The position numbers and the translations under genes are program-made. This document shows positions 10,525-28,299 of a stretch of DNA of 64,000 nt, piece after piece; position 1 is the stretch's first letter; every line of letters begins with the position of its first letter. The notes beneath the pieces were generated by a model. That model had not been told where the DNA came from and did not search any database. It saw only the letters and a list, made by a program, of their open reading frames with translations. Source of the DNA: a virus (Duplodnaviria > Heunggongvirae > Uroviricota > Caudoviricetes); the IMG/VR virus record IMGVR_UViG_3300031873_001030; one strand, 5' to 3'.

Positions 10525-10649
10525 ATTTCAATCAGATAATTGACAAGTATCTGGATAGGGAAAGGAGAGAAAGAAAGATAGGGGAATATTATGTTAGCGA
10601 GATTCCATATTGTTTAAGATTAACTTGGTTTAGATTCAAACAGCCTAAA

Positions 10650-11186: not shown

Positions 11187-12039
11187 AGTCACATTTGCAG
11201 TCTGCGCATACAATGAGGAAAAGATTATCGCAGAATGTCTGAGACACATAAAGAACGTCGATTATCCTAACAAGGAGATAATAGTCGGAAGCGATGGGAC
11301 TGACAGGACAACTGAGATAGCACAAAATATTGGTGGTGTGGAAGTCATATCATCTGGAGAGAGGCTTGGAAAGACTCAGATGCTGATGAAGATAATAGAG
11401 CAAGCCAAAGGAGATATAATAATCATAAATGATGCTGAATTTTTCCTATTTCCAAATGACGCTGTCTACAAGATTGTAGAAAGTTTTGAGAACGAAAGGA
11501 TAGGAGGATTGTCATTTGGCTCTTCAGCTCCTCATGAGATTGACTTCACAAATTGGTGGGGACTCGTGGAACACGTGATACAGGACATATTCAGATATCA
11601 TAGGATGAAAAAGAACCCACTCACGTCATTGAAAGATGCTAATTTTATCATCGTAGCAAATGCTTTCAGAAAGGATATCATAACAAAGCTTGAGACGATA
11701 AATGATGATGCTGAGATAGGATATCAATTACTGTCTAAAAATCATTATCTGCTATATGTCCCTTCAGTCAGTTTCTATACACCTGGAGGTTCTGCAAAGA
11801 ACATAAAGGATAATATAAACCAGAGGTCAAGGACTGCAGTAGGATGGATACAGATAGGAAAGTTGTATAAGATAAACTTCTTGAGATTCTATATAATCTC
11901 TTTCTGGATGATTGTCAAACTGATATTCAGCCTGATAATCTGGACTGGAGTATTCATATTCAGCTACCTGAAAGGAAGATTCCTCTACATCATAGGCAGA
12001 AGGTCTTCAAAGCAAGTATGGACAAAGGTAAGAAGATGA
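11167..12039 (+). CDS. family 2 glycosyltransferase (GT-A fold)
   Basis: N-terminus FAVCAYNEEKII...VGSDGTDRT typical of GT2; C-terminal TM segments. Confidence 0.7.
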   Translation: MINVLPKVTFAVCAYNEEKIIAECLRHIKNVDYPNKEIIVGSDGTDRTTEIAQNIGGVEVISSGERLGKTQMLMKIIEQAKGDIIIINDAEFFLFPNDAVYKIVESFENERIGGLSFGSSAPHEIDFTNWWGLVEHVIQDIFRYHRMKKNPLTSLKDANFIIVANAFRKDIITKLETINDDAEIGYQLLSKNHYLLYVPSVSFYTPGGSAKNIKDNINQRSRTAVGWIQIGKLYKINFLRFYIISFWMIVKLIFSLIIWTGVFIFSYLKGRFLYIIGRRSSKQVWTKVRR

Positions 12040-12374
12040 GAAAAAAATTCAATTATGAAAACTATTACAAGAAATATTATGAAAGTCATAAGGATAAGCA
12101 CTTGTATTATGTCAATGAATGGAAGAAGAAGCATAAAGATAGTGTAAGAATTTATTCCAAACGTTATTCCAAAAGTTGGAGATTGAGAAACAAAGAAAGA
12201 TTGAAGAAAACTTCAAAAAGATATTATGACAGGCATATCAGAAGTTCTTGGTTCGATAGGATATTTGGTTTCAAATGCAAAGTATGCGGCAAGAGATATA
12301 AAGATAAAAAGGCTTTGGGTGGGCATACCACATATTGTAAAAGAAAAAGGATTGAACTTATTAACATATGTTAA
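12018..12374 (+). CDS. Lys-rich protein with C-terminal C2HC zinc finger (118 aa)
   Basis: FKCKVCGKRYKDKKALGGHTTYC; stop codon TAA lies inside palindrome 12361..12374. Confidence 0.45.
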   Translation: MDKGKKMRKKFNYENYYKKYYESHKDKHLYYVNEWKKKHKDSVRIYSKRYSKSWRLRNKERLKKTSKRYYDRHIRSSWFDRIFGFKCKVCGKRYKDKKALGGHTTYCKRKRIELINIC

Positions 12375-12411
12375 AAAGATTGCATGCAGATAACTTCTTA
12401 ACATATGTTAA
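12361..12411. repeat. palindrome pair TTAACATATGTTAA-N23-TTAACATATGTTAA spanning a gene junction
   Basis: First copy holds the stop of 12018..12374; second copy holds the ATG (catATGtta) of 12405..12995. Confidence 0.9.
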
Positions 12412-12995
12412 TTGCTCGGAAATTCCGAAAAGCAGAAGGTAATGACATGGACCCATTGTGGAACAAGAAATTAGAGATAATAAAGAAGCATGGTATAGAC
12501 AATGCTATTTTGGATTTAGGATGCAACATAGGTGACTTCTCCTCATATTTCGTGAGAAATGGATATGATGTGACTGGCGTCGACATAGACAATGAAAATT
12601 TGCTCATAGCAAACAGCAGAGGGATACATACGAAAAAATGCAATCTGAATCTGAAATTGCCTATGAAAAGCAATTCATATCCTACCATCTTCGCATTGGA
12701 GATAATAGAGCATCTCATCAATCCAGACAATGTCATAAAGGAAGCGCATAGACTGCTCAAAGATGGCGGGAAGTTTTATGTGTCAGTCCCATACTTCGGA
12801 CTAGTAAAAAGAACAGCGATATCGCTGTTCTTTTTTGATGATGTCTTTCTATATAATGGTCCGCATATAAGATTTTTCTCTGAAAAATCTTTCCGTAATA
12901 TATTGACAAAAAATGGATTCAAGATTCTCAAGATTTATAAACTTGGAAGATTCTATCCAGTCTATATGGACATGCTTGCCGTATGCTCTAAATAA
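12405..12995 (+). CDS. class I SAM-dependent methyltransferase
   Basis: Motif I ILDLGCNIGDFS; post-I acidic DVTGVDID; LKDGGKFYVSVP motif. Confidence 0.7.
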   Translation: MLIARKFRKAEGNDMDPLWNKKLEIIKKHGIDNAILDLGCNIGDFSSYFVRNGYDVTGVDIDNENLLIANSRGIHTKKCNLNLKLPMKSNSYPTIFALEIIEHLINPDNVIKEAHRLLKDGGKFYVSVPYFGLVKRTAISLFFFDDVFLYNGPHIRFFSEKSFRNILTKNGFKILKIYKLGRFYPVYMDMLAVCSK

Positions 12996-13353
12996 GCAAT
13001 ATGCCTACTACAATCAATAACGAAAGCATTACGAAATTTATAAATCTCGAAGAATCAAATGAGATATTCTTCCCATTATACCAAAGGAATACAAAAGGTG
13101 ACATCCAGAAAAAATGTTTGTGCTTCAGTATGAACAGAGTATCTTCAAGAGTAAATTTGCTATGCCTCAAATCTTCTTTATAATCCTTTATGAAACTTTT
13201 TTCTACCAGATGCTTTTCCTCATGCTTTCTGAGCCTTAAGAACAAGCTTCTATTTTTTTTTAGAAATGGTTCCATGTAGATATTGCCATCTTCGACATAG
13301 GCTATGTTGAACGGGTCAAGCTTCTTATAGATAATCTGGTATTTCAAAGTCAT
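12988..13353 (-). CDS. hypothetical protein with C-terminal TM anchor (121 aa)
   Basis: ORF ends MLSLLIVVGILLI. Confidence 0.35.
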   Translation of the reverse strand: MTLKYQIIYKKLDPFNIAYVEDGNIYMEPFLKKNRSLFLRLRKHEEKHLVEKSFIKDYKEDLRHSKFTLEDTLFILKHKHFFWMSPFVFLWYNGKNISFDSSRFINFVMLSLLIVVGILLI

Positions 13354-13583
13354 TTATCATCATCAGAATCTTTTGTAAACAGAATTCCCAGATATTTCAA
13401 TCTATCTTCCTCTATTCTTTCAAATCTCAATCTTGTATTTCCAAGCCTGTATACTTCATGGTTGGTGCTATAGTTGTAAAACATGAACCTCAATTGGAAT
13501 TGTTCCAAATCTTTTTTCCCATATAATCTTCCTATCTCAAGTTCATTGTCATCCATCATTTCCTTTCTCCTATACATGAGCAA
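13350..13583 (-). CDS. hypothetical protein (77 aa)
   Basis: Intact ORF overlapping neighbour by 4 nt (operon-like). Confidence 0.3.
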   Translation of the reverse strand: MLMYRRKEMMDDNELEIGRLYGKKDLEQFQLRFMFYNYSTNHEVYRLGNTRLRFERIEEDRLKYLGILFTKDSDDDK

Positions 13584-13723
13584 TTTTCACAAATCCAATA
13601 CATTGAATTTTTCATTTTGTCATGCCTTATTTTTATGCATTTATTTATGCAGGCAGACTTCCCACAGATGACACATGCTGCCAAAGCTGTCCTTTCGGCT
13701 CTACATATTTCACATGCCATTTA

Positions 13724-14488
13724 TTATCCTTTCCAATTATAATAATTTTTGCAATCATCTTTTGATTCGCACTGTTGGCATGATGTATCATCCTTATCAA
13801 AAAGTGTGAAGCAGTCATGAAAAGGTGGTCTCTTTATTATTTTTTTATTGCCCATGAACAATCCTAATTCGACCAATCTATCTGAACATTCGCTATCTTT
13901 AGCAGATATCACTTCTTCTAATTTGATTTTAAATAGCGCTAGCAAGACCATCGCTTGTCCTCTTTCTTTGCTCTCTCCTTTTGGAAAGTGCTTGTCCAGT
14001 TCATCAATAAGTTCTTCTATTACATTTGCAGACAAGATTTCAGAACAAGGATGCTGTTCTGTCCCTCTTGTTTTACAGGATGAATTGTTTGGGTTATCTG
14101 ACTTGCCTTTCAAAAAATTATTACGAACCTTTTTGAAATCATTAATCTCACCTTCAAGAGCTATGCCTCCGCTCCAATGTAATTGCTTCAGTTTTCTCAT
14201 GTTTTCCAATCTCTTGATTTCACTGTCCAGAATCTTAATTACATTGTCTTTTGCAATTCTTTTTTCATATCTGCTTGGATTGAATGAACACTTTTCCCAG
14301 CTCCTTACTTTCCCATCATTATATTCTCCATCCTCAGAAGTTCCGCATATCAAATCACAATGCAGGGCGACTAATCCCAAATCATTATCAGCATGTTTGC
14401 AACTGCCACAAGTCATCAGTTCTTCTTTGTTGCAACTTTTTATTATTATTTTTTTCATATTCATTTTCATTTTTTCATCTTCTGTCAT
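13724..14488 (-). CDS. Cys-rich hypothetical protein (254 aa)
   Basis: Many Cys pairs (CGSCKH, CQQCESKDDC); no recognisable domain. Confidence 0.45.
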   Translation of the reverse strand: MTEDEKMKMNMKKIIIKSCNKEELMTCGSCKHADNDLGLVALHCDLICGTSEDGEYNDGKVRSWEKCSFNPSRYEKRIAKDNVIKILDSEIKRLENMRKLKQLHWSGGIALEGEINDFKKVRNNFLKGKSDNPNNSSCKTRGTEQHPCSEILSANVIEELIDELDKHFPKGESKERGQAMVLLALFKIKLEEVISAKDSECSDRLVELGLFMGNKKIIKRPPFHDCFTLFDKDDTSCQQCESKDDCKNYYNWKG

Positions 14489-14822
14489 ATTTCACTACAA
14501 CAACTGTTTTGTTTTTCATAACGGCAGTAGCGATAGTATGTGCTGTTCCATAACTCCAACCATCCCAGAACGCAATGACAATATTTGAATCATTTACCAT
14601 TTCAATATTCCTTTTGAGATAATTGCCACTATCAGCAGGGAAATGTTCTATTTCAATATTATTCTCTCTTGCATATTCTTCTGCATATTCGTCAGCACTA
14701 TTCTTACAACAACCTTCAATAATTATGTCATCTTTATGCAAATGACATTTCAATGTATCAAATACTAATTCCTTATAAGATTCTTTCGTTCTTGTTCCAC
14801 ATATCAAGACTTTATTCATCAT
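14475..14822 (-). CDS. SLOG/DUF2493-like Rossmann-fold protein
   Basis: VLICGTR...GCCKNSADEYAEEYA...FPADSG...IAFWDGWSYGTAHTI resembles the DUF2493 GxR...GADxxA...FxAxW pattern. Confidence 0.4.
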   Translation of the reverse strand: MMNKVLICGTRTKESYKELVFDTLKCHLHKDDIIIEGCCKNSADEYAEEYARENNIEIEHFPADSGNYLKRNIEMVNDSNIVIAFWDGWSYGTAHTIATAVMKNKTVVVVKYDRR

Positions 14823-15055
14823 TTCACCTTTCTTTTTTTCTTATTCAAAGGCATCAAGTCATTCGTACCAATAGCAAAATAACCCATCTTTATCATAGGC
14901 GTGCTGTCTCGCAATATCTTTTTGGGATTATTCTTGTCAGCATAGATTGTAGTATTTCCAAATTGCCCTACTATCATGTCTTCACTTTCAAATGTCTCTA
15001 TCCTTGTATTTTTCACCCTCTCTATGAAATCCTTTAATTCTAATTTTATATCCAA
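14819..15055 (-). CDS. hypothetical protein (78 aa)
   Basis: ORF in co-directional minus-strand cluster with 4-nt overlaps. Confidence 0.35.
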   Translation of the reverse strand: MDIKLELKDFIERVKNTRIETFESEDMIVGQFGNTTIYADKNNPKKILRDSTPMIKMGYFAIGTNDLMPLNKKKRKVK

Positions 15056-15059
15056 ATCA

Positions 15060-15419
15060 TTACCTCTTTAATTTCTTTTTTCGAAAGAAGGCATTGTCAT
15101 AAGTGCAATTCCATTCTGGTTTTCCAACGAGATAAAATCGTTCCTTGCTCAACTTGCCTCTTTTATATTTCTTCTTTTCAATCTTTCCGTAATGATAGCA
15201 TTTGCCTTCATCAAGGACATCATTGACCACATGCCAGAATTTCCTGAACATCAGATTTGCAGGCTTGTCCATATAATTAATCTTCAACCAATGCTGCATA
15301 TTCTTGTTCATCATGAAGAATCCCATGTCAAACATGGCTCTCAATTCATCTTCAGATATCGGTATCTGCAACCAATCCATATTTTTGTCATCAACTATGT
15401 TAATCGTCACTCTCTTCAT
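15060..15419 (-). CDS. hypothetical protein (119 aa)
   Basis: Intact ORF in minus-strand cluster. Confidence 0.4.
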   Translation of the reverse strand: MKRVTINIVDDKNMDWLQIPISEDELRAMFDMGFFMMNKNMQHWLKINYMDKPANLMFRKFWHVVNDVLDEGKCYHYGKIEKKKYKRGKLSKERFYLVGKPEWNCTYDNAFFRKKKLKR

Positions 15420-15682
15420 AAGATATTCGCTCCTAGATTTCCTATGTTGAGTGCAAGTTTTTCACATCGCAGCCCATCATCAGTCACATCTATCACTTTA
15501 TATAATACTCCATTTTTATCCATGATTACTTTTCCGATATAGTTCTGCTTGTTGACTCTCATGTCTTTCAGCACTTCTGAAGTTATCGAACTCATGTCAA
15601 GAAATCCTCTTATATCATTTTTTTCTGTCCTTGCTCCAAAAATAATCCTTATGTCTCCCATATCATTCATCCTCCAACTCAT
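15416..15682 (-). CDS. hypothetical protein (88 aa)
   Basis: Intact ORF overlapping downstream gene by 4 nt. Confidence 0.4.
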   Translation of the reverse strand: MSWRMNDMGDIRIIFGARTEKNDIRGFLDMSSITSEVLKDMRVNKQNYIGKVIMDKNGVLYKVIDVTDDGLRCEKLALNIGNLGANIL

Positions 15683-15765
15683 TCAAATCCTTGTCAAATT
15701 CATATATGGCATTCTCATCTTCTGGCATGCACCATTTTTTCAAGAACTTTTTTAATTTCATTTAA

Positions 15766-15984
15766 TCAACCCTGGCAATAATGTCTTGTTCTCTTCTCAC
15801 CTTTGAAAATCCTTCTCGCTTTCCATATTTCCCGATTCTTGTTTACGACGAAGTTCAGGTATTCGCCATCATTATCCATCTTCTCCAAGTCAGCACAAAG
15901 CATGTTCTCATGATATGGACATGGATAATAGTTTCCTCCGCTTGTCCTGCATCCGCAGGCAAAGTCTGTTCCGATTTGAATCAC
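15766..15984 (-). CDS. hypothetical Cys-containing protein (72 aa)
   Basis: CGC...CPYH...C motif; overlapping + strand ORFs considered less likely. Confidence 0.3.
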   Translation of the reverse strand: MIQIGTDFACGCRTSGGNYYPCPYHENMLCADLEKMDNDGEYLNFVVNKNREIWKARRIFKGEKRTRHYCQG

Positions 15985-16499
15985 CTAAGCTTTCGTATCT
16001 TGACTTCGATGAATGTCTCGGCATCGAAAAACTTTCCAAACTTCAGAGGAATCCATATTATCTTCCCTCTTTTTCCCATCTGACCCACCTTACATCTAAA
16101 ACTTATTTCATTTATCATAAAATATATTAGTTTCATTAGAATATAAAGTTTTAAATTCAATTATAATACAGCAAATAGAAGTGACAATTATACCAAACCC
16201 AAGTTGAGTCACTGAAATGAGGATTTATAGTTCAATCCAATCTTTACAATTTCCACAGAAGTCTCCACCACTCTTACAGCTTCCATCATAAAAATTTTTA
16301 CAACTACTGCAGCATCTCAAGTTTTAACCTATTTTTAGCTTCTTCTTCCAACTTACATATTTCATTTATCGTATACATCACAATAACCTCCACATCTTCA
16401 ATCTGACAGCGAGTTTATACATATTATGCCAAAACCAACTGCCTTCATTCTTTCTCGCAAACATATATATTCCAACATATGTTATCAATGACATAATTG

Positions 16500-16770
16500 T
16501 AAACCACAGATTACCAGACCATACCCGAACCTATAAGACCACATCACACCTGAGCGAAAAGTGTTAACCATACCACATCAGACTTTATCATGCCTTACCA
16601 GTCCTTAACATATCGTAACTTACCACAACGTAGCATAAATGACAATCCATATCTTACCACACACCAACATATCTTACCAAAACCCACCCTAACCCATCTA
16701 ACCCAATCATAAATATAATCCCTATCTTACCAAATCCCATCACAACGGACCCTACCAAATCAGACCCCGT
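16500..16770 (-). repeat. inverted partial copy of the GGTNN satellite (G-rich strand on minus)
   Basis: ACC-rich on + strand (accagaccatacccgaacc...); the reverse complement matches units of the 5090..7940 array, e.g. ggtaagatagggattatatttatg. Confidence 0.7.
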
Positions 16771-16868
16771 TAAATAATTATAAGTTTCCCTTTAAAGAAA
16801 CATGGAAGAGGACTTGTTCCTCTTCCCAACCAAATAATACCTTCTTGCCCTCTAAGTCAGTTACTTCT

Positions 16869-17171
16869 TTATCGAATAAAAACGTCGAAAGCTTTTGCCT
16901 TTCGTCCGCTTTTAGTTGAAACTAGACCCTTGAAGACAATTTTCAGTTCCTGACCAATTTTCACTGAACCCATCTGTCTCTCTAAAATCATAGAACCAAA
17001 GACAGTTCTGACTTTTCCAGTGTTGTCTTTGATGTCGTAGACTCTGGACTTACTTCCATCTGGCCTGAAGTAATTTCCATCTCGAATTTGCATGAGAGTT
17101 CCTTCCAGTGAGTCGTCTTCATTTTCGAATCTGAATATTTCTCCACTTGTAGATTGCCAATTTCCTGGCAT
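16869..17171 (-). CDS. hypothetical protein (100 aa)
   Basis: Intact ORF; divergent from 17441 across an AT-rich 270-bp region. Confidence 0.45.
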   Translation of the reverse strand: MPGNWQSTSGEIFRFENEDDSLEGTLMQIRDGNYFRPDGSKSRVYDIKDNTGKVRTVFGSMILERQMGSVKIGQELKIVFKGLVSTKSGRKAKAFDVFIR

Positions 17172-17440
17172 GAATTATCAACTCCATTATTAATTAATAG
17201 AAACTATCAGTCTCTATCTAGATTATTTCATAACTTGGGAATAGTCTAGAATACAGACAAGCTCTTCAGTCTATATAAACATAATTGAAATCTGTGAGAT
17301 AAACTTCAGAAACTTTATCTCATGACTTATATCTTTCAAGATAAAGTTTCCCTGATAGAAAAGAGTATTTATAATCAAACATCAATATAATGACCGATAG
17401 CTTTTTAAAGCTATGCTTTATGTGATAAAGGAGAATAGGA

Positions 17441-17638
17441 ATGATAATAGACTATGGCAAGTTGAAAGGAAAGAAAGTGAAATTGTTATGCGTATTTGAA
17501 GGTCTGAGTCAGACTATCTATTACGATGGCATAATACTAGATTCATCTGAAGTCAATAAGGTTGTGACCATATCAGATAGATTTAGCAAGACAGTTCACA
17601 TTGATATGGATAGTATAAAACAAGTGGTAGAGTTATGA
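17441..17638 (+). CDS. hypothetical small protein (65 aa)
   Basis: AAGGAGAATAGG SD upstream. Confidence 0.35.
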   Translation: MIIDYGKLKGKKVKLLCVFEGLSQTIYYDGIILDSSEVNKVVTISDRFSKTVHIDMDSIKQVVEL

Positions 17639-17742: not shown

Positions 17743-18933
17743 ATGACGTTGAAGAATCTTGTAACGCCATTGGAACTTAAGACTCTCTGGGATTCTGAAT
17801 ATTACAAATCAATATTGACAGCTACAGCTAGCAGCTGCCAATTTGGAAGGATAAGAGAACACCAACGTAATAATACATTCAAAGAAATCAGAGCCAATCT
17901 GAATGCTCTGATAGTTGGAGAATATGGAATTGGGAAATCCACAATGTTGGACATTAAGAATGTCCCAATAGTCAGGGCTAATACAGTTTCAGTTGCTGGA
18001 CTAGCTGGAACTACGACAAGAAGTGGGGAACACGTTATTGGAGCTGCATATAAAGCTAATAATAAATTACTAATTATAGATGACGTTGGTAGTGGTGAAA
18101 ATTCTTATATAGATAATTCTGTAAAACGATGCATGAATCTGCTATTGGAACCTCCGCATACTTTTTCACGAATGTTAGGATTTAAGATGAACATTCCTGT
18201 GAAAGAGAAGAAGGGTGGAGCTTGGGTGAAAGGAAGTGAGAATCAGTTTACATTGCGTTCTAAGTTCAGTTGCATCGTAGCTACAACATCAGTTGTAATT
18301 CGAAATACTGATGACAAAGCTTGGATGTCAAGATTCGTACCAGTAAAACTACATGGTAGTGTGGATTACATGTTTGAATTTTTATCTGGTTCTAATCCAT
18401 TTACAATTACTGGTTTGAATCGGAAAGTCAAGTTATTTGAATTTCCAGATTATCTGGAATTCTTGGAATTCTATGAAGAACATTTTCGTGGAAGTCTGTG
18501 GGAGAAAAGCATAATAGAAAAGGAAGATGAAGTCGGTTCTATAGCGAGAAATACTGGTGACTTGGTAAGATTGGCTGCTTTCAATTGCGCTGTCGATGAT
18601 AGAATAAATATAGAATTTGAAGATGCCAAGAAAGTTTTTGATAGGTTCTACAATCAGATATGGTTCAATATCCAAGTTGGACCACTGACTCATGAACAAT
18701 ATAGAGTTCTATTACTTCTCAATAAGAAGTTGACTGAAGATGAGATAGCAGAAACTATACAAAGGTCACAGCCTTACGTATCTAAGATGATAGAGAAATT
18801 TGAAAGTAAGGGAATACTTGTAGACAGAAAAGTTGCGAAAGAAGTTGAAAACTTTAAACAAACTTCATGGGAAAAACTCGAACCACAGCAGACTTTATCA
18901 GAATCTGTAAAGTTAGATGGTAGTCATGAGTGA
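17743..18933 (+). CDS. AAA+ ATPase with C-terminal winged-helix domain (Orc1/Cdc6-like or mobile-element replication initiator)
   Basis: Walker A VGEYGIGKST; Walker B LLIIDDVGSGE; C-terminal wH LTHEQYRVLLLLNKKLTEDEIAETIQRSQPYVSKMIEKFESKGIL. Confidence 0.55.
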   Translation: MTLKNLVTPLELKTLWDSEYYKSILTATASSCQFGRIREHQRNNTFKEIRANLNALIVGEYGIGKSTMLDIKNVPIVRANTVSVAGLAGTTTRSGEHVIGAAYKANNKLLIIDDVGSGENSYIDNSVKRCMNLLLEPPHTFSRMLGFKMNIPVKEKKGGAWVKGSENQFTLRSKFSCIVATTSVVIRNTDDKAWMSRFVPVKLHGSVDYMFEFLSGSNPFTITGLNRKVKLFEFPDYLEFLEFYEEHFRGSLWEKSIIEKEDEVGSIARNTGDLVRLAAFNCAVDDRINIEFEDAKKVFDRFYNQIWFNIQVGPLTHEQYRVLLLLNKKLTEDEIAETIQRSQPYVSKMIEKFESKGILVDRKVAKEVENFKQTSWEKLEPQQTLSESVKLDGSHE

Positions 18934-19099
18934 TTATAAAGATAAATTGCATTATAGTGAACGTGATGATAGATATTACACAATGAGTGACTATGAAAAA
19001 AAATATCGACAAACTAAAAAGTACAAGGAATATAGAAAAAAATATCGGAAAAAACTGAAAGAGAAAAGGTTGATGAGAAGTTACAAATGATATTACAAA

Positions 19100-19560
19100 A
19101 TCGGCGCGCGCAAGTTTAACTAAAGCTATTAGCTGATGTGATGAGACTACTATGTAGGAGTAATGCTATATGAAGAACTCTAAGTAGTAAAAATAAAAAA
19201 ATTATATAATATATATATTAGAGTATATGAATGAAATCGTTGTTGGAGTTAAGGCGTAGAATGTCTCCGTTGGGGTAATTCATCTAGTCTGTATAGAGTA
19301 GAGGAAGAATATTCCAAATCGCAGAACATAGAGAGAGAGAGAGAGAAAATCTTGACTTCTTGTTTTGCCAAATGGAATATTTTGCTAGTAGTCTATAAAG
19401 ACTAGATGAACAAGGCTAACGGAGACAATTTACGCCTTCTTTCCAATAACGAAAAACGCAGTTTTTTTGCCAAAAATGATATTGAAAAAAGCCACTTTTT
19501 CGTTGTTTTTTGAAACAGCACTAAATTCATAGACTAGTAGTAAAAAAAACTCAAATTAAG
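19100..19560. other. candidate replication origin / structured intergenic region
   Basis: ORF-free ~720 bp downstream of the AAA+-wH gene. ~166-bp imperfect palindrome with outer IR tgtctccgtt (19262..19271 / 19418..19427) and inner IR catctagtct (19281..19290 / 19399..19408). (GA)8 at 19331..19346 sits between the arms. AT-rich flanks. Confidence 0.35.
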
Positions 19561-19672
19561 TATATGCTTCAAAACATACTTCATATGATATAATTTAACG
19601 AAGGATGACATTTCATGCATTGAAGATATTTAAACTTGAAAAACGAAAGTTATCATTAGTTTAAGTGATAAG

Positions 19673-20074
19673 ATGTTGGAAGAAAAACATAAAGGTTCTT
19701 CAAGTTTTTTACTGATTTTGCTTGGAATTTTTATTGGTGTAGCTATTATGTTTTTGATTGGTTTCATTTCAGATTCAAATCCAGATTTTGATTCACCTTC
19801 AGTCAAACTTTTGGGAACTTGGCAGACTTTCATACCAATCAATGGTGTTCAGAATTTATTCACATTCAGTTTTGACAAGAACGCTAGCACAATCATAGCT
19901 TCAGAAACTGCATCAGTCAGTGGAAAATATGAGATTAAAGGTTCAAGTCTGACTATCTTCGATTCCAGCAATCAGACAATTTCAGTTTATACTTATCAAT
20001 TTATTACAGATAACTCTTTGAGTCTGATTCAGTCTGGACAAAATTTAGGAATTATTCTGACTAGATTGGCATAA
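19673..20074 (+). CDS. membrane-anchored/secreted small protein (133 aa)
   Basis: N-terminal TM/signal FLLILLGIFIGVAIMFLIGFI; Ser/Thr-rich remainder. Confidence 0.45.
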   Translation: MLEEKHKGSSSFLLILLGIFIGVAIMFLIGFISDSNPDFDSPSVKLLGTWQTFIPINGVQNLFTFSFDKNASTIIASETASVSGKYEIKGSSLTIFDSSNQTISVYTYQFITDNSLSLIQSGQNLGIILTRLA

Positions 20075-20502
20075 AAATTTTAAAACTTTATAAAGAATGA
20101 TTCCTAAATGAATTGTAGGAAATTTTAATTGGTAAATATGGATTTTATACCTGGAAAATTTTACAGTGTTAAGGAAATAGATGAAGGACTTACAGATTTG
20201 AGAGTCATACACAAGATTAAGGGTGTCGATTATCATCTTTTTAGGAATAAATCACATGATGATGGGAATAGGTATTATCTTATGTATGTTTCAAAAGCGT
20301 ATTGGTTGAAAGAAATACGGGAACGAGGTTTGTTGAAAATATGACAAGAGAAGATAGAAGAAACAAAGTCGCACCAGGATGGAAATTTCTCCATAGCAAG
20401 AATAAGACCCTGCTGTTGAGATACGACAATGAAAATAAATAAAATCAGGAAAGTGAAAAATAGATGACTCACCAAATATAAAGAATAATGAAAGTGAAAT
20501 AG

Positions 20503-21249
20503 ATGAGTATCATAGAAGTCAGAAAAGATGCTGCTTATAGAGCTATGAAAGATATTATTTCGCTGATTAATAATGTTAATACAGTTTATGATGTGGGTGG
20601 GAGGAATGGTTGTGACAAACTTTTGAAGAAAGTGAAAAATGTTATCATTTTGGATAGGAATAAAGAGATGCTTGCAAGAGCACGGAGGAAAGGATTCAGA
20701 ACTATCTGTTGTGATTTGAATTACAAGCTTCCATTGAAAAGCAATTCTATAGAAGCATATTTTTGTGCTAATCTAGTGGAGCACATAGTAAATATAGATA
20801 TACTCATATCTGAGATGTGGAGGACTTTGAAACCAGGTGGAACTTTATTTATTCTGACGCCGAATTTGGTCTCGCTGCATAATCGGTTCTTGTTCTTATT
20901 TGGAAAATTACCGACTTGTTGCTGTGTATCTGATTTGTTCTATGTTGGAAGTTCTGGAGAAGAGGGGATATCCCATCGGCATATAAGAATGCATACATTC
21001 TCGTCTCTTGCGAGACTATTTGAACTTCATGGTTTTGATTCTGTGCTTATGAAGGGTTCTGGGTTCTATCCAAGTTTCCTCAATTTCATGTCAGGTGTAG
21101 TGCCTACATTCTCGGTGTATATAATAGCGGTATTTAGAAAGGGAAAAGTTCCAAAAGATGATGTCAGGAGACTTTTGTATAGGAAGCTATATGATGATGA
21201 TATGGAACTGTTAAAAAGAAAATTGTTAGATAGCAGATATGATTTATAG
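20503..21249 (+). CDS. class I SAM-dependent methyltransferase
   Basis: Motif I VYDVGGRNGCD; LKPGGTLFILTP. Confidence 0.65.
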   Translation: MSIIEVRKDAAYRAMKDIISLINNVNTVYDVGGRNGCDKLLKKVKNVIILDRNKEMLARARRKGFRTICCDLNYKLPLKSNSIEAYFCANLVEHIVNIDILISEMWRTLKPGGTLFILTPNLVSLHNRFLFLFGKLPTCCCVSDLFYVGSSGEEGISHRHIRMHTFSSLARLFELHGFDSVLMKGSGFYPSFLNFMSGVVPTFSVYIIAVFRKGKVPKDDVRRLLYRKLYDDDMELLKRKLLDSRYDL

Positions 21250-21672
21250 AGACTATGTTTTGGATGTCGGTTGTGGAAAAGGAAATCTTGAAGTGATATT
21301 GGAAAGAAGGGGATTTGAAAATCTTTTTGCATTGGACAGTTCCAAAATGGCATTGGCAGAACTTAAATTGAGAACAAGAAAAAGCAAGACATCCAAAATC
21401 CTATGCAAGTCATAAAGGAATGCATGAGAGTTGGCAGACAAGCTATCATAGCCGTTCCTAATGGATTTTGGGTCGAACTGATACCTAAGAATTGGACTAT
21501 GCCAATTCCAAATTACTATGCACCTACAAAGAAATTGTTGAAATCTGCTGTGCATTGGTTGGGAGGAGAGATAATAGAATGGAATTATTACTATTCAGAT
21601 TTCAGATTCATAAGAAAATTCTTTCCAAGATGGTTCAGTACTAGCTTCATAGTAAGAGTAAAAAAACGATAA
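21240..21672 (+). pseudogene. disrupted methyltransferase (motif I fragment in one frame, remainder in another)
   Basis: 58-aa ORF 21240..21413 contains YVLDVGCGKGNLE (motif I) then stops; ORF 21403..21672 continues in another frame; no intact full-length reading frame. Confidence 0.35.
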
Positions 21673-21728
21673 GTTTATATACTTTCACAAACAATATATA
21701 ATATGCTTCAGAGACATGAAGTTAACTA

Positions 21729-22961
21729 TTGGAGATGAAAGTGATGAACATAGGTGAAGTTGAAATTGGAAAACCTTGGCAATATAAGGAAAATTCTATT
21801 GGAATTGTTGTTCCACTTTTAAGGAAGAATCAAGTCAAAAGAAATTATAAGACAGTTGAGGAAGTTAAGGAGATGATGAATATCAAGGATACTGGAAATA
21901 TAGACAGTGTTGAAATTTCCTCAAAAGTCAATGAACCAGTTTTTATCAGGAGCGGGACGATGTTTGAAGGGGTTGGAACTCAGAGCAGGACGCCAACAAC
22001 TAGCATTGTCATAATTCCAAATCAACAGCCTATGAAAGTTCCTGTAAAATGCATACATGCTTCTCATCACATATCTTCTGGAAGCAACTTTAAAGTCGCA
22101 GGTAGTATTCCCCACTATATTGGTTATGCAGCTTTTGGACCAAGGGCTAGTCAATCTCGTGTGTGGTCTTCTGTAAGCATGCAAGCAAGTTCTGTAAGCC
22201 ATCATGCTATGCATCTTTCTGACAATCTTATCGATAACGTAAGAAAAATAGAAACTTTTAAGAAAGATATTGGCGAAGCAGTTAAAAACTATCCGATATT
22301 GAAAAATCAAGTTGGTATAGTTGTTCTTGATTTTAACGGGGTTGTTGGTCTTGAGATGTTTGATAATTCTGAATCTTGGGCAGCAGTATGTAAAGACATA
22401 ATCAATAAGTATTCTGACACAATAACACAGCTTGTTGACAGTCCTTTATTTTCATTGAATGAAGAAAGCATAAAACCAAAGATATTGGAATTCTTGAAGA
22501 AGCTGACAGAAGCAAAAGAAGAGATTATCTTTCAAGCAGATGTGATGAAAACAATCTTATTGGAAAATGGAGATATCATTGGAGAATGTACGAGTATTGA
22601 TGGCAGGATGATACATCTCATGGGAATGAAAAAGAAGGATGAGGAAAGGACATATGGTTCAGTTGCTCCAAATAATTTACCATTTACACCACAAAATTGG
22701 ACAACCAGAGGTTCTAACTATTCTGTGCTATCTGCACTTGGAGATGGAAGTAGGAGATTTTCAGAAATAGAGAAAACAACTAAATTATCCCCAGCTACAG
22801 TAAGCAAAAATTTAAGCAAGTTCCATTCTCTTGGATTTATTGACAAGTCAGCAGAAATAATAAACAACAAGGCCCGTGAAGTTTATAGCCTTACAAGCAA
22901 CGGTAAAAATGCATTTTTTACTATGCATGATGTCAGGAAGAAATTGATGAAGCTTGGATAA
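21729..22961 (+). CDS. hypothetical protein with C-terminal winged-HTH DNA-binding domain (410 aa)
   Basis: C-terminus LSALGDGSRRFSEIEKTTKLSPATVSKNLSKFHSLGFIDKS resembles ArsR/MarR-type wHTH. Confidence 0.5.
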   Translation: MEMKVMNIGEVEIGKPWQYKENSIGIVVPLLRKNQVKRNYKTVEEVKEMMNIKDTGNIDSVEISSKVNEPVFIRSGTMFEGVGTQSRTPTTSIVIIPNQQPMKVPVKCIHASHHISSGSNFKVAGSIPHYIGYAAFGPRASQSRVWSSVSMQASSVSHHAMHLSDNLIDNVRKIETFKKDIGEAVKNYPILKNQVGIVVLDFNGVVGLEMFDNSESWAAVCKDIINKYSDTITQLVDSPLFSLNEESIKPKILEFLKKLTEAKEEIIFQADVMKTILLENGDIIGECTSIDGRMIHLMGMKKKDEERTYGSVAPNNLPFTPQNWTTRGSNYSVLSALGDGSRRFSEIEKTTKLSPATVSKNLSKFHSLGFIDKSAEIINNKAREVYSLTSNGKNAFFTMHDVRKKLMKLG

Positions 22962-23109
22962 GCCTTAAATACTTTAACAGCCAATATTTTTTAGATATCA
23001 AATGAGAATCTACGATAATGTCACGATATAAGTTACACATTATGTGTAACCTCTCTATCTTTGCCTAGCAAGTGAAGACAGGGACATAAAAGAAAAAGAG
23101 GTAGATTCA

Positions 23110-23427
23110 ATGGTATTAATGTATAGGCAGGGAGACTTGCTTTTCAGAAAAGTAGAGAAGATTCCTTCTAATGCAGATGTCGTTAAAAATGGCGTTATTC
23201 TAAAAGGTGAAGCGACTGGACATGCTCACAAGCTTGTAGGCGGTACAGTATTTTCACAGTCAACTGGATTCATGGGAAATGGTCCAAGACAAATGTTCCT
23301 TCAAGTTGAAAAGAGCGGAAGAGTTGTTCATGAAGAACATAAAACAATTGAACTTGAAATTGGGTTCTACATCGTAATCCGTCAACGTGAATATAACCCA
23401 TACAGAATCTCATTAGTCGGGGATTAG
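23110..23427 (+). CDS. hypothetical protein (105 aa)
   Basis: Intact ORF; stop abuts start of next gene. Confidence 0.4.
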   Translation: MVLMYRQGDLLFRKVEKIPSNADVVKNGVILKGEATGHAHKLVGGTVFSQSTGFMGNGPRQMFLQVEKSGRVVHEEHKTIELEIGFYIVIRQREYNPYRISLVGD

Positions 23428-24054
23428 ATGATGGACGAATTCAAGAACACAATGAAAGGATTCTTTCACAGTTTTGATTATCTTCCTGAAGTGTTCAAGA
23501 CTCTTCATATCATAAGGCTAGTTCCAGGAAAGTTCGAGGTCAAGATGAAGCAGCCAATGATAATCCTTGGAAACCTGAGATTCCTGAATGAGACAAAACA
23601 TAGATGGCAGGAATACAATTTCGAAACTTTCTTCCTCAAAAAGAGAATTCCAGATTGCCAATGCAAAGAAGTCATGGATGCTGCAAAGGAATACATCCTA
23701 TTCAAAAGACTGCATGAGAACCAGAAAATCAGTGCAAGAGAAATAATGAATTGCAAAAATCTCGAATTGAGGAGAGCATTACTTGAAAGGTTTGGTTATG
23801 AGAAAATGTTGAATGAGCTTGGTGGACATATGATAGATGCAGAAGGAAATTACATTCTTTTCAAAATGGATTTCAGGGAAGTAAATGAATCTGTAAAATT
23901 AAATGAGGATGTAAAACTTTTGAAGATGAAGGATTCCTCAACAGAAAGATGGTATGTATTAAGGGTTCCTCCAAATGTAAAAAATTGCACTGAAGCTGTG
24001 TCATGGTCTTTCAATACGCCAGTTGAAGAATACAAATTAGAAGTGGAAACATAG
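23428..24054 (+). CDS. hypothetical protein (208 aa)
   Basis: Intact ORF translationally coupled to 23110..23427. Confidence 0.45.
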   Translation: MMDEFKNTMKGFFHSFDYLPEVFKTLHIIRLVPGKFEVKMKQPMIILGNLRFLNETKHRWQEYNFETFFLKKRIPDCQCKEVMDAAKEYILFKRLHENQKISAREIMNCKNLELRRALLERFGYEKMLNELGGHMIDAEGNYILFKMDFREVNESVKLNEDVKLLKMKDSSTERWYVLRVPPNVKNCTEAVSWSFNTPVEEYKLEVET

Positions 24055-24100
24055 TGCGTGTGACAGGATTTGAACCTGTAAGGCACTAAGCAACGGATAT
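24055..24100 (-). ncRNA. orphan tRNA 3'-half-like fragment (T-arm ACAGG-TTCAAAT-CCTGT + acceptor 3' strand CACACGC-A)
   Basis: Perfect T-arm and 3' acceptor strand, but no complementary 5' acceptor strand (GYGTGTG) within ~250 nt. Confidence 0.3.
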
Positions 24101-24415
24101 CCAAGTCCTAATCGTTTAAGTTTACTCTTGGTTTGAGCCTTTGAGTTTGGGCCTCTAAGTCCGCCTATCTTTTAAATAATTATATATGCTGTAATATATA
24201 TTATGAAAAAGCGAAAACTAATTTAACTGTTGAAATTAAAGTTATTGGATATGTCTTACTGTAAAGCATGCAGAATATGCCTTCCTTTCTTAATTCATCA
24301 TGCAATTTTATAATTAAGAAGGTTATAATGTTGACTTTGATACTCTTCTTTCCAGCACAAGCTCATATCTTTTTAATACCTTCCTTATTGCAGCAATGAT
24401 ACTTATCTTTTTCTC

Positions 24416-24479
24416 TTAACATATGTTAATCAGTGATGCAGCATAATGCAAAATTCCTTCAGTCTTTAACATATGTTAA
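24416..24479. repeat. palindrome pair TTAACATATGTTAA-N36-TTAACATATGTTAA
   Basis: Two exact 14-mers flanking 36-bp spacer tcagtgatgcagcataatgcaaaattccttcagtct, adjacent to tRNA cluster. Confidence 0.9.
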
Positions 24480-24601
24480 TGTCAAATTAGAAATGCAATA
24501 CGATTGTTAACAAGAAAGTTAACAAAGTCTCACCTGCCAGAATTGCACCAGCATCTACGAGGCTACAGCTCGTTGTTCTACTGTTGAACTAAGGCGAGTT
24601 G

Positions 24602-24674
24602 TGGGGATGCTGAGATTTGAACTCAGATTATTCGCTTCCAGAGCGAAGGTTCTAACAAGTTATACTACATCCCC
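24602..24674 (-). tRNA. tRNA-Pro (anticodon TGG)
   Basis: Manual fold: acceptor GGGGATG/CATCCCC; T-arm CTGAG-TTCAAAT-CTCAG; anticodon stem TTCGC/GCGAA; loop TCTGGAA (C at position 33 is atypical). Confidence 0.65.
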
Positions 24675-24677
24675 AAG

Positions 24678-24751
24678 GGAGAATAGAGGGATTTGAACCC
24701 TCTCTAACAAGTTCACAGCTTGACGTGCTCGCCTACTACACCATATTCTCC
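24678..24751 (-). tRNA. tRNA-His (anticodon GTG) with G-1
   Basis: Acceptor GAGAATA/TATTCTC plus an extra 5' G pairing the discriminator C (His hallmark); D-stem GTGT/GCAC; anticodon loop CTGTGAA; T-arm GAGGG-TTCAAAT-CCCTC. Confidence 0.75.
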
Positions 24752-25212
24752 ATTTTATTATGTTCTTCTCTATGGCAATTTGCACATAGAAGTTTGCATT
24801 TCTGCAATTCTTTTCGTATCACCTCGAGACTATTATGCCATATTCTGGATATTTCATATTTCTTTTCTCCGTTCATATGATGAAATTCAAGTGCTGCGAA
24901 ACATTTGTTATATCCACATTTTTGACATTTACCTCCAAATTCCATTTTCATAATTTTTGTTTTTTCTTGGTTTTTACGCTTTTGTGCTATATACCACAAA
25001 TGTCTCTGAGGGAGAGATGATTTTTGTTTATGTTGTTTTATATATTTTCTCATATATTCTCTATGATATTTTTTCCTTTTTTCTCTGTTTTCAGGGTTTG
25101 ACAACCAAATTTTCCATCGTTCTTTTTCTTGCTCACGGTGTGATTTTCTATATAATCTATTTATTTCACACAATCGTTCTTTGTTTTTTTCATAATATTT
25201 TTTACTGGTCAT
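24736..25212 (-). CDS. HNH endonuclease
   Basis: CQKCGY...LEFHHMNGEK...LCANCHREEH (HNH/zinc-finger nuclease signature); the 3' end of the ORF overlaps the 5' end of tRNA-His. Confidence 0.65.
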   Translation of the reverse strand: MTSKKYYEKNKERLCEINRLYRKSHREQEKERWKIWLSNPENREKRKKYHREYMRKYIKQHKQKSSLPQRHLWYIAQKRKNQEKTKIMKMEFGGKCQKCGYNKCFAALEFHHMNGEKKYEISRIWHNSLEVIRKELQKCKLLCANCHREEHNKMENMV

Positions 25213-25255
25213 ATAATGTAATTGTTTAATACCATTTATATTTGTTGTTGAACTA

Positions 25256-25330
25256 CGCTCTGGGCAAGACTCGAACTTGCAATTTCTCCGTTAACAGCGG
25301 AGCGCTTGTACCTGTTTAAGCTGCCAGAGC
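25256..25330 (-). tRNA. tRNA-Asn (anticodon GTT)
   Basis: Acceptor GCTCTGG/CCAGAGC; D-stem GCTT/AAGC; anticodon stem CTCCG/CGGAG; loop CTGTTAA; T-arm GCAAG-TTCGAGT-CTTGC. Confidence 0.75.
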
Positions 25331-25333
25331 AAG

Positions 25334-25437
25334 TACTCCCCGAATGATTCGAACATTCGTCTCTTGGTTTCTCCAAGTTTCAGATTCTTGTTGAAATTAT
25401 CAAAGCCAAGCATCTTTGTCCACTGGACGAGGGGAGT
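25334..25437 (-). tRNA. tRNA-Gln (anticodon TTG) with ~31-nt intron at 37/38
   Basis: Acceptor ACTCCCC/GGGGAGT; T-arm GAATG-TTCGAAT-CATTC; anticodon stem CTTGG/CCAAG enclosing 38 nt (CTTTGA + 31-nt insert); intron contains TCAA complementary to the anticodon region (BHB-like). Confidence 0.6.
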
Positions 25438-25469
25438 ATATTGATTGTAGTTCTTTTTAAAAACTATGG

Positions 25470-25500
25470 ACACAAGCGGGAATCGAACTCGCATCTCTTT
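25470..25500 (-). ncRNA. orphan tRNA 3'-half-like fragment (GCGAG-TTCGATT-CCCGC T-arm + 3' strand TTGTGTC-C)
   Basis: T-arm-like element with one A.C mismatch; no matching 5' acceptor strand found upstream. Confidence 0.25.
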
Positions 25501-25706
25501 CTTGCAAGGGAAGTATCCTACCATTAAACGATTGGCCCGTCATTGAAGAAAAAAGAACTAGCTCTATTGATTTGCCTTATGGGCGGGCTGTTGATTATAT
25601 GCTTCAATAGACATATTAGAAAATTTAGTCTTGATGATTGATTTGATTTTGTATTATGTGATATATAGAATGCAATATATATTTTAGAAGCATTATTTTC
25701 TAGATT

Positions 25707-25723
25707 TATCCCTCTAACGGGAT
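25707..25723. repeat. ATCCC-N6-GGGAT hairpin with GATTTAT/GGGATTTAT flanks
   Basis: Overlaps the stop codon of XPF (minus strand); same motif family as 7712..7752 and 43488..43503. Confidence 0.5.
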
Positions 25724-26358
25724 TTATATTTTTCAGTCAATATCTTCTTGATTCTAGTTGAAAGTACGTCTCCTATTCCCTTTGCTTTCTGCAAGTCTTC
25801 CTCACTGGCTAAAAGTACTTTTTCAACAGAACCGAGATTTTCCAACAGCCTTTTGGATATTGTCGAATTTACTCCAGGAATGGAGGAGACTATCTGCTCT
25901 TGTATCTTTGACATTTCTGTCGGCACCTTTTCAAATTTGTATGATACAGTTCTTTTGCTTTCAACTTGCTCTTTTTTCGCAAGATGATATATCATTCTGG
26001 CAGTGTCCATTTTGTCCTTAGTATTTACTATGGAAATGTTGAATCTGATGATTAGACTTGCCATAGCGGCTTTCACAATGTTCACATCTATGCGTTCATT
26101 TGGAAATCCTTCTATGATTATGATGACAATCTTAAAATTGTCCTTCATCCTAGTTGTCTGTTCAAATAACCTTCCATCAAATATTGACGCTACAAAATCT
26201 TGATATGTCTTCCTTTCAATCACTGTCCTATCCGAAACTATGAAGTCTCCAACTTCCAAGAAAGATTCATTCAAGTTGACGTTGGCAAAATTTCTCAGAA
26301 AGTATATCAGCTCTTTTTCCCTGGAATCTGCTGATATCGTGATTTTAAATTCTTCCAT
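25714..26358 (-). CDS. xpf: short XPF/Hef-type structure-specific nuclease (ERCC4 nuclease domain + HhH2)
   Basis: ERCC4 motif GDFIVSDRTVIERKTYQDFVASIFDGRLFEQ; C-terminal HhH2 IPGVNSTISKRLLENLGSVEKVLLASEEDLQKAKGIGDVLSTRI; ~214 aa as in the crenarchaeal-type PCNA-dependent short XPF. Confidence 0.7.
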   Translation of the reverse strand: MEEFKITISADSREKELIYFLRNFANVNLNESFLEVGDFIVSDRTVIERKTYQDFVASIFDGRLFEQTTRMKDNFKIVIIIIEGFPNERIDVNIVKAAMASLIIRFNISIVNTKDKMDTARMIYHLAKKEQVESKRTVSYKFEKVPTEMSKIQEQIVSSIPGVNSTISKRLLENLGSVEKVLLASEEDLQKAKGIGDVLSTRIKKILTEKYKSR

Positions 26359-26598
26359 AGTATTATCAGTAATTGCAAAAATATATCTCCGAAATCGGGA
26401 AGGTTACAGATTCACTGGAAACCAGCGAAGCATTGTCGATGCTATGAAATCCTTCCCAGTAGGAGATAAATTTATTTGTGCAGATAATCTTAAATACTTT
26501 AACAACCGATATAATTGTATCTCTCATACAGCTATGGGATTCATAATACAACAACAGGATGTAGTACAGTTTCCGTAGCGATTTTGGAGGGTACATTT

Positions 26599-26859
26599 AT
26601 GGATACCATCACGCTATATATACTTAGAACAAAGCCAGAGACACATTTCTATGTTGGAATTACTAAAGACCTTGATAAGAGATTAGAACAGCATAAAAAT
26701 AATCCAAATGTCTCTTGGGTAAAAAGAAGAAACTTTAAATTTGATTTAGTATGGAGAGAGAAATTTCCTGATTTGAAATCTGCAAGGAAAAAGGAGAAAT
26801 ATTATAAGAAAATGGAAAGGAAAAGACTCTTAAAAATCATTGGGATAAAAGGAGTGTGA
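26599..26859 (+). CDS. small GIY-YIG nuclease-superfamily protein (YhbQ/Slx1-like), paralogue 1
   Basis: LYILRTKPETHFYVGITKDLDKRLEQHK GIY-YIG core; GGAGG SD 9 nt upstream of internal ATG 26599 (track ORF starts 26515); paralogue at 35982..36239. Confidence 0.65.
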   Translation: MDTITLYILRTKPETHFYVGITKDLDKRLEQHKNNPNVSWVKRRNFKFDLVWREKFPDLKSARKKEKYYKKMERKRLLKIIGIKGV

Positions 26860-26863
26860 TGGT

Positions 26864-28279: not shown

Positions 28280-28299
28280 TAAAAAAGGAAGTGAAATAA

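Follow-up and report, generated by a model that had tools for sequence, protein, structure and literature searches.

A long palindrome next to a truncated MCM-family helicase gene is a candidate replication origin of an archaeal extrachromosomal element

The stretch of DNA analysed here, 64,000 nt filed as IMG/VR record IMGVR_UViG_3300031873_001030 and called the window or 64-kb window below, carries a long imperfect palindrome downstream of a gene for a truncated MCM-family helicase, the mini-MCM. We consider, with moderate confidence, that the AT-rich tract at 19183-19236, the palindrome at 19237-19452 and the flanking repeats up to about 19545 together make up the cis-acting replication origin of the element, a reading derived from sequence comparison. 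All positions are coordinates of the window, and the labels L001-L050 denote loci of relatives. The region is read in this way because the palindrome is real, unique in the window and located downstream of an MCM-family gene, in a module with a possible single-strand-binding (SSB)-like protein; because all three relatives with a 40-45% identical mini-MCM keep a palindrome of similar size in that place, with diverged sequence and retained pairing; because the same slot in L050 holds iterons flanking an AT-rich spacer, which is a classic origin layout; because the least stable 40 bp of both the window and L005 abut the palindrome; and because copies of AGACTAG, TTTGCCAAA and CTAG are concentrated at it. 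The window has 35% G+C and nearly all of its genes are on one strand. It encodes an archaeal Hef/XPF-type nuclease and a ParB-like protein (gene 4011-4895), while many of its other proteins gave no family match. No match to the window was found among INPHARED phages or PLSDB plasmids by DNA and protein searches, and no relative was detected in IMG/VR or the GTDB species genomes with the profile of the mini-MCM or that of a 100-aa protein encoded nearby. Among the distant relatives, one encodes a Pox_A32-type packaging ATPase and another, L050, a ParB_N protein. We infer that the window is part of a large extrachromosomal element of archaea, a plasmid or a virus that belongs to an undescribed family.

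The palindrome comprises 216 bp and starts 304 nt past the stop codon of the mini-MCM gene (17743..18933). The gap-free inverted-repeat comparison, together with the folds, placed the left arm at 19237-19328 and the right arm at 19361-19452, each of 92 nt, and by the gap-free comparison the arms are 76% complementary. The non-palindromic spacer between them is 32 nt long (19329-19360) and holds an (AG)8 run at 19330-19346. The original prediction for this region had described a palindrome of about 166 bp; the structure is real, but it is larger than was claimed. The smaller repeats named there were all recovered, i.e., the outer inverted repeat tgtctccgtt (19262-19271) and aacggagaca (19418-19427), the inner one catctagtct (19281-19290) and agactagatg (19399-19408), the microsatellite between the arms, listed as (GA)8 and found as the (AG)8 run, and the AT-rich repeat agtagtaaaaa, which occurs twice, at 19183 and 19536. 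The region free of open reading frames (ORFs) does exist as well, but it measures 582 bp (19091-19672) and not about 720 bp, because it is preceded by a small ORF (18917-19090) running across the stop codon of the mini-MCM gene. This ORF (plus strand) encodes a basic, K/R/Y-rich product, and a similar KKYRQ-containing K/R/Y-rich ORF occupies the same place in L001.

The minimum-energy fold of the palindrome contains 82 base pairs. With RNA parameters the fold reached -101.4 kcal/mol on the plus strand (z -14.1) and -79.1 kcal/mol on the minus strand (z -12.0), and with DNA parameters -54.2 kcal/mol (z -11.6) and -44.4 kcal/mol (z -9.5), respectively. Each z-score was calculated against 200 shuffled sequences, and in none of the four folds did any of the 200 shuffles match the real sequence. 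Within the window the palindrome is the longest inverted repeat and also the strongest one (z -14), and no second copy of it was found there. A hairpin telomere or a fold-back artefact of assembly was ruled out, since the flanks are unique and the palindromic part is just 216 bp.

The gene upstream of the palindrome (17743..18933, plus strand) encodes a product of 396 aa in which an MCM-family AAA+ core is joined to a C-terminal winged helix, while the N-terminal domain of MCM is missing. Taken alone, the protein gives only sub-threshold matches to P-loop and MarR/TrmB winged-helix families. An exhaustive HMMER search returned 114 relatives, and 59 of these were used for the profile and the alignment. 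Against the PDB, the profile matched eukaryotic and archaeal MCM AAA+ domains with E-values from 6.5e-13 to 1e-9, and the Pfam MCM P-loop domain was matched by 14 of the 59 members. The AlphaFold (AF2) model built on the 59-sequence alignment had a pLDDT of 88, with helices 317-355 confidently modelled, while AF2 from three sequences alone gave a pLDDT of 30. All of the best 50 Foldseek matches in the PDB were MCM subunits, the best being MCM2-7 and archaeal MCM. A winged helix-turn-helix of MarR/TrmB type matches residues 315-362 of the protein and is matched in the relatives, too. We regard the protein as a truncated MCM because the profile, Pfam, the AlphaFold model and Foldseek all match MCM. 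Models of Orc1/Cdc6 matched neither the protein nor its relatives, and ORF904 (SF3), SaPI Rep, Cch (DUF927), Cch2 and Primase_Cterm were not among the 25 most frequent of the 33 matched Pfam families. Hence, of the original description the AAA+ P-loop and the C-terminal winged helix stand, but the likeness to Orc1/Cdc6 does not, as the profile (E 6.5e-13) and Foldseek place the protein in the MCM family.

The mini-MCM gene is part of a module with the order 100-aa protein (on the opposite strand), 65-aa protein, mini-MCM and then a large repeat-rich intergenic region. The first gene (16869..17171, minus strand) has 42 relatives in metagenomes, and its product is 62-82% identical in L001, L002, L005 and L006. 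In the databases this product resembled archaeal Replication factor A weakly (E 0.23) and nothing else; it is possibly an OB-fold single-strand-binding protein, judging from this similarity. The 65-aa protein (17441..17638, plus strand) has homologues at the same position in L005, L006 and L007, and domain-library searches gave no family match for it. Two relatives carry a different gene in the helicase slot: after the genes for the 100-aa and 65-aa proteins, L043 (2893-4395, minus strand) and L046 (2046-3572, minus strand) encode a protein of roughly 500 aa for which homology to the mini-MCM could not be detected. This suggests that the replication protein was replaced inside a conserved module.

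Contigs of relatives were gathered via the mini-MCM and via the 100-aa protein. The three closest relatives with enough flanking DNA were L048, L005 and L040, so that the palindrome-bearing lineages, including the window, were four in number; L043 and L046 were left out of this comparison due to the non-homologous protein in their helicase slot. In L048, with a mini-MCM 45% identical to that of the window, the palindrome lies at 2412-2641 and has overlapping arms of 119 nt. In L005 (41% identical) it lies at 9830-10070, with nested arms of 45 and 39 nt and z-scores of -8.9 and -11.5, and in L040 (40% identical) at 3024-3263 with z-scores of -10.4 and -11.2. Thus all three relatives have a palindrome of 184-241 nt downstream of the mini-MCM gene, and each time it is the longest inverted repeat of its locus. 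The four palindromes are barely alignable: pairwise z ranges from 1.3 to 8.1, the traces of similarity still present between pairs score 3.6 to 8.1, and scores are about equal in both orientations, yet each keeps 67-90 base pairs (window, L005, L040 and L048). In the basal helix AACGGAGACAATYTAMGCCTYC, direct reading of the window against L048 showed two double changes that keep pairing, from C-G to A-T and from T-A to C-G. When the four palindromes were aligned with MAFFT, RNAalifold returned no consensus structure, their divergence being too great for an alignment in register. A dinucleotide run occupies the centre in each case, (GA)8 in the window, (AT)8 in L005, TATATATA in L040 and (AT)6 in L048. 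The window and L005 also have an inverted apex motif in common, which spans 19307-19381 in the window as AATATTCCAAA (19308-19318) and TGGAATATT (19373-19381), and is found at 9904-9914 and 9988-9996 in L005, with a further copy at 9768.

Where the identity of the mini-MCM is 33% or lower, other repeats fill the slot. In L006 and L042 these are shorter inverted repeats, the one in L006 having at its centre a (TA)6 dinucleotide run and a single TATTCCAAAAT apex motif. In L050 (mini-MCM 33% identical) two blocks of 8-nt iterons, GGGAGTAT and GGGAGTCT, flank an AT-rich spacer. In the window, L005, L040, L048 and L050, the helicase gene is followed directly by a non-coding region rich in repeats. 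An inverted repeat upstream of the helicase gene in L008 was weak (z -3) and was not counted. A search of IMG/VR with the pattern AATATTCCAAAN{40,70}TGGAATATT returned 28 matches, which were taken as chance, the best of them folding at -65 kcal/mol compared with -111 kcal/mol for the palindrome of the window.

On its left side the palindrome is bordered by the AT-rich tract (19183-19236), a candidate unwinding element containing the box TATAATATATATATTA (19205-19220). According to nearest-neighbour energies, the least stable 40-bp duplex among all 63,960 segments of this length in the window is 19188-19227, abutting the palindrome. The same 16-mer TATAATATATATATTA occurs in L005 at 9781-9796, inside the least stable 40 bp (start 9756) of that 17-kb locus, and these sit just ahead of the L005 palindrome, as in the window. 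L040 has a comparable AT run, ATATATATATTATATAATATAATAAAA, between the stop codon of the helicase gene and the palindrome. Short motifs are clustered here as well. All three copies of AGACTAG/CTAGTCT in the window fall in 19284-19537, one of them within a partial third copy of the inner arm motif (19526-19545), and 4 of the 72 window copies of CTAG are concentrated in the palindrome region. A segment of the right arm is repeated directly, with one copy at 19360-19381 and the other, TTTTGCCAAA..GATATT, at 19462-19483 (plus strand); both window copies of TTTGCCAAA and two of the three copies of AATGATATT are located at this direct repeat, and its short motifs occur around the L005 palindrome, too. 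A second, small inverted repeat with T runs, among them a T7 at 19461-19467, extends over 19445-19507 and has arms of 23 nt with 74% complementarity.

If the region is an origin, the mini-MCM encoded just upstream would act as a self-loading initiator helicase. Its C-terminal winged helix would bind the repeated motifs on both inverted arms, and because the motifs recognised would lie on inverted arms, we propose that two rings would assemble in head-to-head orientation around the dinucleotide repeat at the centre and the AT-rich tract beside it. The dinucleotide repeat and the tract would be the first to melt. After melting, the arms could pair into a very stable hairpin (-44 to -54 kcal/mol as DNA), which could mark a priming site, while the OB-like 100-aa protein may coat the unwound strands. 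Binding by the mini-MCM, melting, hairpin formation in vivo and origin activity are all inferred from the sequence features described above.

The original prediction had tied a candidate origin to the AAA+/winged-helix gene by analogy to archaeal chromosomal origins. The origin-like character is borne out by the syntenic palindromes, the iterons of L050 and the unstable duplex, but the Orc1 and origin recognition box (ORB) analogy is not. Within 18900-19700, the consensus sequences TCCAGTGGAAAC and GTTCCAGTGGAAAC had no match within 3 mismatches, and a 13-mer taken as the Methanothermobacter mini-ORB had three matches with 3 mismatches, compared with 68 in the whole window. The candidate is therefore not an origin of Orc1/ORB type, since there is neither an adjacent Orc1/Cdc6 gene nor an ORB box. 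Archaeal chromosomal origins (oriC) are similar to the window in having inverted elements around an easily melted tract, beside a replication gene of AAA+/winged-helix type. They differ in using Orc1/Cdc6 and ORB boxes, whereas the window has an MCM-family protein, no ORB core, and arms that are complementary over their whole length.

Several points weigh against an origin at this place. GC skew shows no sign change or inflection at 19.3 kb, and the sole local minimum of the cumulative skew lies near 17 kb, at a divergent gene boundary. However, the skew follows the coding strand, with +0.28 in 1-12995, -0.34 in 12996-17171, where the genes are on the minus strand, and +0.20 to +0.24 to the right of that block, and because of this the check is uninformative on the origin. 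Conjecturally, the gene orientation fits unidirectional rightward replication from about 19.3 kb on a circular replicon. The AT-rich box could equally be an archaeal TATA box instead of an unwinding element. A spacer of 32 nt, or at least 51 nt in L005, disfavours extrusion of a cruciform from duplex DNA, and arms of 92 nt far exceed the length needed for protein-binding sites. In two of the four palindromes (window and L040) the G-U/G-T pairs are strongly biased to one strand, a hint of a role as RNA or in single-stranded form. Two further ORF-free regions rich in repeats, 16160-16868 and 17172-17440, may hold the true origin instead, the palindrome then being an accessory site, and only four palindrome-bearing lineages were compared.

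The strand bias bears on an explanation that we find unlikely, namely that the palindrome encodes a non-coding RNA with a long hairpin, about 230 nt in length, which would be transcribed from the TATA-like box at 19205-19220 and end at the T7 run at 19461-19467. The opposite strand may then be transcribed in some relatives, and the RNA would serve in control of replication or copy number, in replication priming, or as a partner of a TROVE/Ro60-like protein. In the window the RNA fold of the plus strand is indeed better than that of the minus strand by 22 kcal/mol and has 9 G-U pairs against 1, but this bias is not conserved, the sense/antisense counts being 9/1 in the window, 3/5 in L005, 2/11 in L040 and 6/5 in L048. 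A TATA-like AT-rich box is found upstream of the stem at 16 nt in the window, 33 nt in L005 and about 35 nt in L040, yet L040 folds better on the strand opposite to the one with the box. Likewise, the T7 run comes 8 nt past the stem in the window, while L005, L040 and L048 have no consistent T run after theirs. None of the readings examined here accounts for the opposite strand biases of the window and L040, which are compatible with one strand acting as single-stranded DNA or as RNA. Rfam gave no family for the palindrome, either at the gathering threshold over the whole window, where the only matches were tRNAs elsewhere, or with E up to 10 over 18900-19700. An SRP-like RNA was ruled out by the lack of branches and of an Rfam match.

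The proposed protein partner is encoded at 26864-28279, and Y RNAs are known as long-stem RNAs encoded near Ro60 genes (PMC4201824). The palindrome is like the Y RNA/Ro60 system in forming a long stem from distant 5' and 3' segments and in having a TROVE-like gene in the same element, but it is unlike that system in the missing Rfam match and Ro-binding motif, in the strand, which is not conserved, and in the position of the TROVE gene, which is not adjacent. No Rfam match to Y RNA or YrlA was found, and the Ro-binding motifs GNCGAAN0-1G and GGUCYGA (motif from PMC4201824) are absent from all four palindromes. The distance to the TROVE gene is 7.4 kb in the window and about 3.6 kb in L040, and the flanking DNA obtained for L005 and L048 does not contain the gene. 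As a highly speculative extension, to which we give very little credence, a long-stem RNA derived from the palindrome, with the strand varying by lineage, might act with the TROVE/Ro60-like protein and the mini-MCM at replication initiation. The opposite G-U biases of the window (9/1) and L040 (2/11) would then arise because the RNA genes are flipped. It is just as doubtful that such an RNA would be the archaeal counterpart of the still unexplained need for Y RNA in eukaryotic chromosomal DNA replication.

The palindrome also marks a break in gene order. Synteny with L005 ends right after it and resumes at window position 32804, and the intervening 19673-32800 (about 13 kb) has no counterpart in L005, where 10367-11339 was compared. 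This location, between the end of the plus-strand replication operon and the next plus-strand gene, would suit a transcriptional control or boundary element, i.e., a large operator or a terminator-insulator separating the replication operon from a variable gene block, which we rate as rather improbable. In that case one of the element's many winged-helix proteins would be its binding partner, and the AT-rich tracts would serve as archaeal promoters of the usual kind. The region does have TATA-like boxes and T runs, and the window has other repeated palindromic candidate operators, e.g., TTAACATATGTTAA with 15 copies. Arms of 92-119 nt that stay complementary across lineages with 40-45% identity nevertheless exceed the needs of known operators and archaeal terminators. 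Termination in archaea proceeds at oligo-T without long hairpins. A bacterial-type scan scored no intrinsic terminator and found sigma-70 promoter-like sites at chance level, and the layout of L050, iterons with an AT spacer, is typical of origins and speaks against a control element.

The synteny breakpoint would fit a recombination-related or selfish palindrome without a role in replication initiation, too, for example an insertion of foldback or MITE-like type, a site of resolution or inversion, or a fragile site at the border of a variable region. The orientation of the palindrome is also ambiguous between lineages, the window and L048 giving a slightly better alignment with one of them flipped (z 4.3 versus 2.4). 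We nonetheless hold a recombination-related or selfish palindrome to be very improbable. It is a single copy in the window, no flanking direct repeat in the sense of a target-site duplication is evident, and no look-alike turned up in IMG/VR, none of the 28 matches to the pattern being comparable in its fold. The neighbouring ORFs scanned gave no match to an integrase, resolvase or transposase family, and the position beside the same gene is kept in four diverged lineages.

Returning to the candidate origin, two arrangements studied by experiment, those of pRN1 and of the SaPI and SCCmec elements, speak in its favour. The origin of the Sulfolobus plasmid pRN1 is a stem-loop of about 100 nt downstream of orf904; this stem-loop cannot be dispensed with, tolerates relocation and has to remain intact; between pRN1 and pRN2 the stem-loop's structure is better conserved than its sequence, a classical iteron array is lacking, and the helicase-type protein of orf904 carries a C-terminal winged helix (PMC4234260). 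ORF904 joins a primase-polymerase to an SF3 helicase. Similarly, the window represents an archaeal extrachromosomal replicon with a long stem-loop downstream of a helicase-type gene with a C-terminal winged helix, a structure kept better than its sequence, and no classical iterons. The differences are in size (about 100 nt versus 216 nt with a 32-nt spacer), in the helicase, which is of SF3 type in ORF904 and has an MCM-family core in the window, where no primase was identified beside the mini-MCM, and in the evidence, origin function having been shown by deletion in pRN1 whereas the site in the window is known from its sequence.

In SaPI (Rep) and SCCmec (Cch, Cch2) elements, a self-loading helicase binds, through its C-terminal domain, to an origin located directly downstream of its own gene; Cch is MCM-like and paired with a small SSB gene, and for binding of Cch2 the inverted repeats are dispensable (PMC7581432). 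The slot of the candidate origin directly downstream of the helicase gene and the possible small SSB-like gene in the module are features in common with the window, and iterons flanking an AT-rich region are the layout seen in L050. These elements differ from the window in being bacterial and in having short iterons instead of a palindrome of about 200 bp, and neither DUF927 nor Primase_Cterm was matched by the mini-MCM. The likeness to pRN1, SaPI and SCCmec is one of mechanism and layout and not of family, the tests made here giving no homology of the mini-MCM to ORF904, SaPI Rep, Cch or Cch2. The core origins of the eukaryotic viruses SV40 and papillomavirus consist of palindromes of about 20-30 bp with an AT-rich tract, on which two hexamers of the initiator helicase assemble head to head. 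The combination of palindrome and AT-rich tract is like that in the window, while the helicases are of SF3 type with an N-terminal origin-binding domain, unlike the mini-MCM. These core origins are also mentioned in PMC7581432.

An origin beside the initiator helicase gene of a mobile element is an established principle, and the module of mini-MCM and palindrome is new. If the region is an origin, the replication module of a family of large archaeal extrachromosomal elements would consist of an OB-like protein, a truncated winged-helix MCM and a palindromic origin of about 200 bp. The mini-MCM would then be a natural example of an MCM-family core that lacks the MCM N-terminal domain and may load itself, with no need of Orc1/Cdc6, at a defined site, which would bear on the evolution of MCM loading. 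The compact cassette of origin and helicase could be tested as a vector backbone for archaea that are hard to transform.

The block 19673-32800 holds methyltransferases, an ARPP-1/wHTH protein, DUF6745, tRNAs, XPF, GIY-YIG and the TROVE gene. The product of the latter (26864-28279, plus strand) is a TROVE-domain, Ro60-like protein of 471 aa that matched PDB entries 9l5y and 9kop over residues 15-398 with E 3e-6. Genes of the same size near the replication module are found in L040 (6889-8316, minus strand) and L046 (5750-7180, minus strand), and upstream of both there are repeated TATGAAACCCTCTTGTGCATGAGC-like motifs in direct and inverted orientation. The core proteome of Borgs also includes TROVE and YspA/YAcAr-type genes (PMC11208441), the one link to Borgs that was observed. 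The tRNA cluster (24527-25538, minus strand) comprises Tyr, Pro, His and Asn tRNAs and a fifth one detected by Rfam alone (25468-25538). In L040 at least nine tRNA matches follow right after the palindrome (328-2678, minus strand), several of them spanning 89-135 nt, and such long matches in relatives suggest intron-containing tRNAs.

Several other repeats were recorded in the window. The perfect 14-bp palindrome TTAACATATGTTAA occurs at 700, 988, 1575, 1613, 2314, 2359, 2425, 2491, 5432, 5478, 5823, 12361, 12398, 24416 and 24466, i.e., 15 copies versus 0.03 expected, often paired at a distance of 30-70 nt, and is likely an operator for a regulator of the element. A hairpin of about 75 nt, GACAAYRAACCTCAGAG...CTGCGAGGTTYRTTGTC, is present in four copies (4944-5016, 6152-6223, 6950-7020 and 34623-34695), the last of which comes immediately after the stop of gene 33879-34622; small RNA, terminator-like element and mobile repeat are all conceivable identities for the hairpin. 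ORF-poor arrays on the kilobase scale, in which TTTATA-like boxes are scattered among short degenerate repeats rich in GGT or ACC, extend over 5090-7960 (plus strand G/T-rich) and 16160-16868 (plus strand C/A-rich), and in relatives over 5413-5712 and 7195-7431 of L050 and 517-912 of L046. In the window an array follows the ParB-like gene (4011-4895), and in L050 the arrays flank the ParB_N gene. They may form a centromere-like partition region and are also an alternative place for the origin. An ORF of 3752 aa (49389-60647, plus strand), which looks like a giant surface or adhesin-type protein, contains about 14 copies of a 75-nt (25-aa) repeat at 51805-52903, and repeats of 102 nt and 162 nt are found near the window end (62784-63700). 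Finally, a 48-nt tandem repeat at 42939-43088, with 3.1 copies of 97% identity, overlaps ORFs on both strands (42573-43328, minus; 42952-43257, plus).

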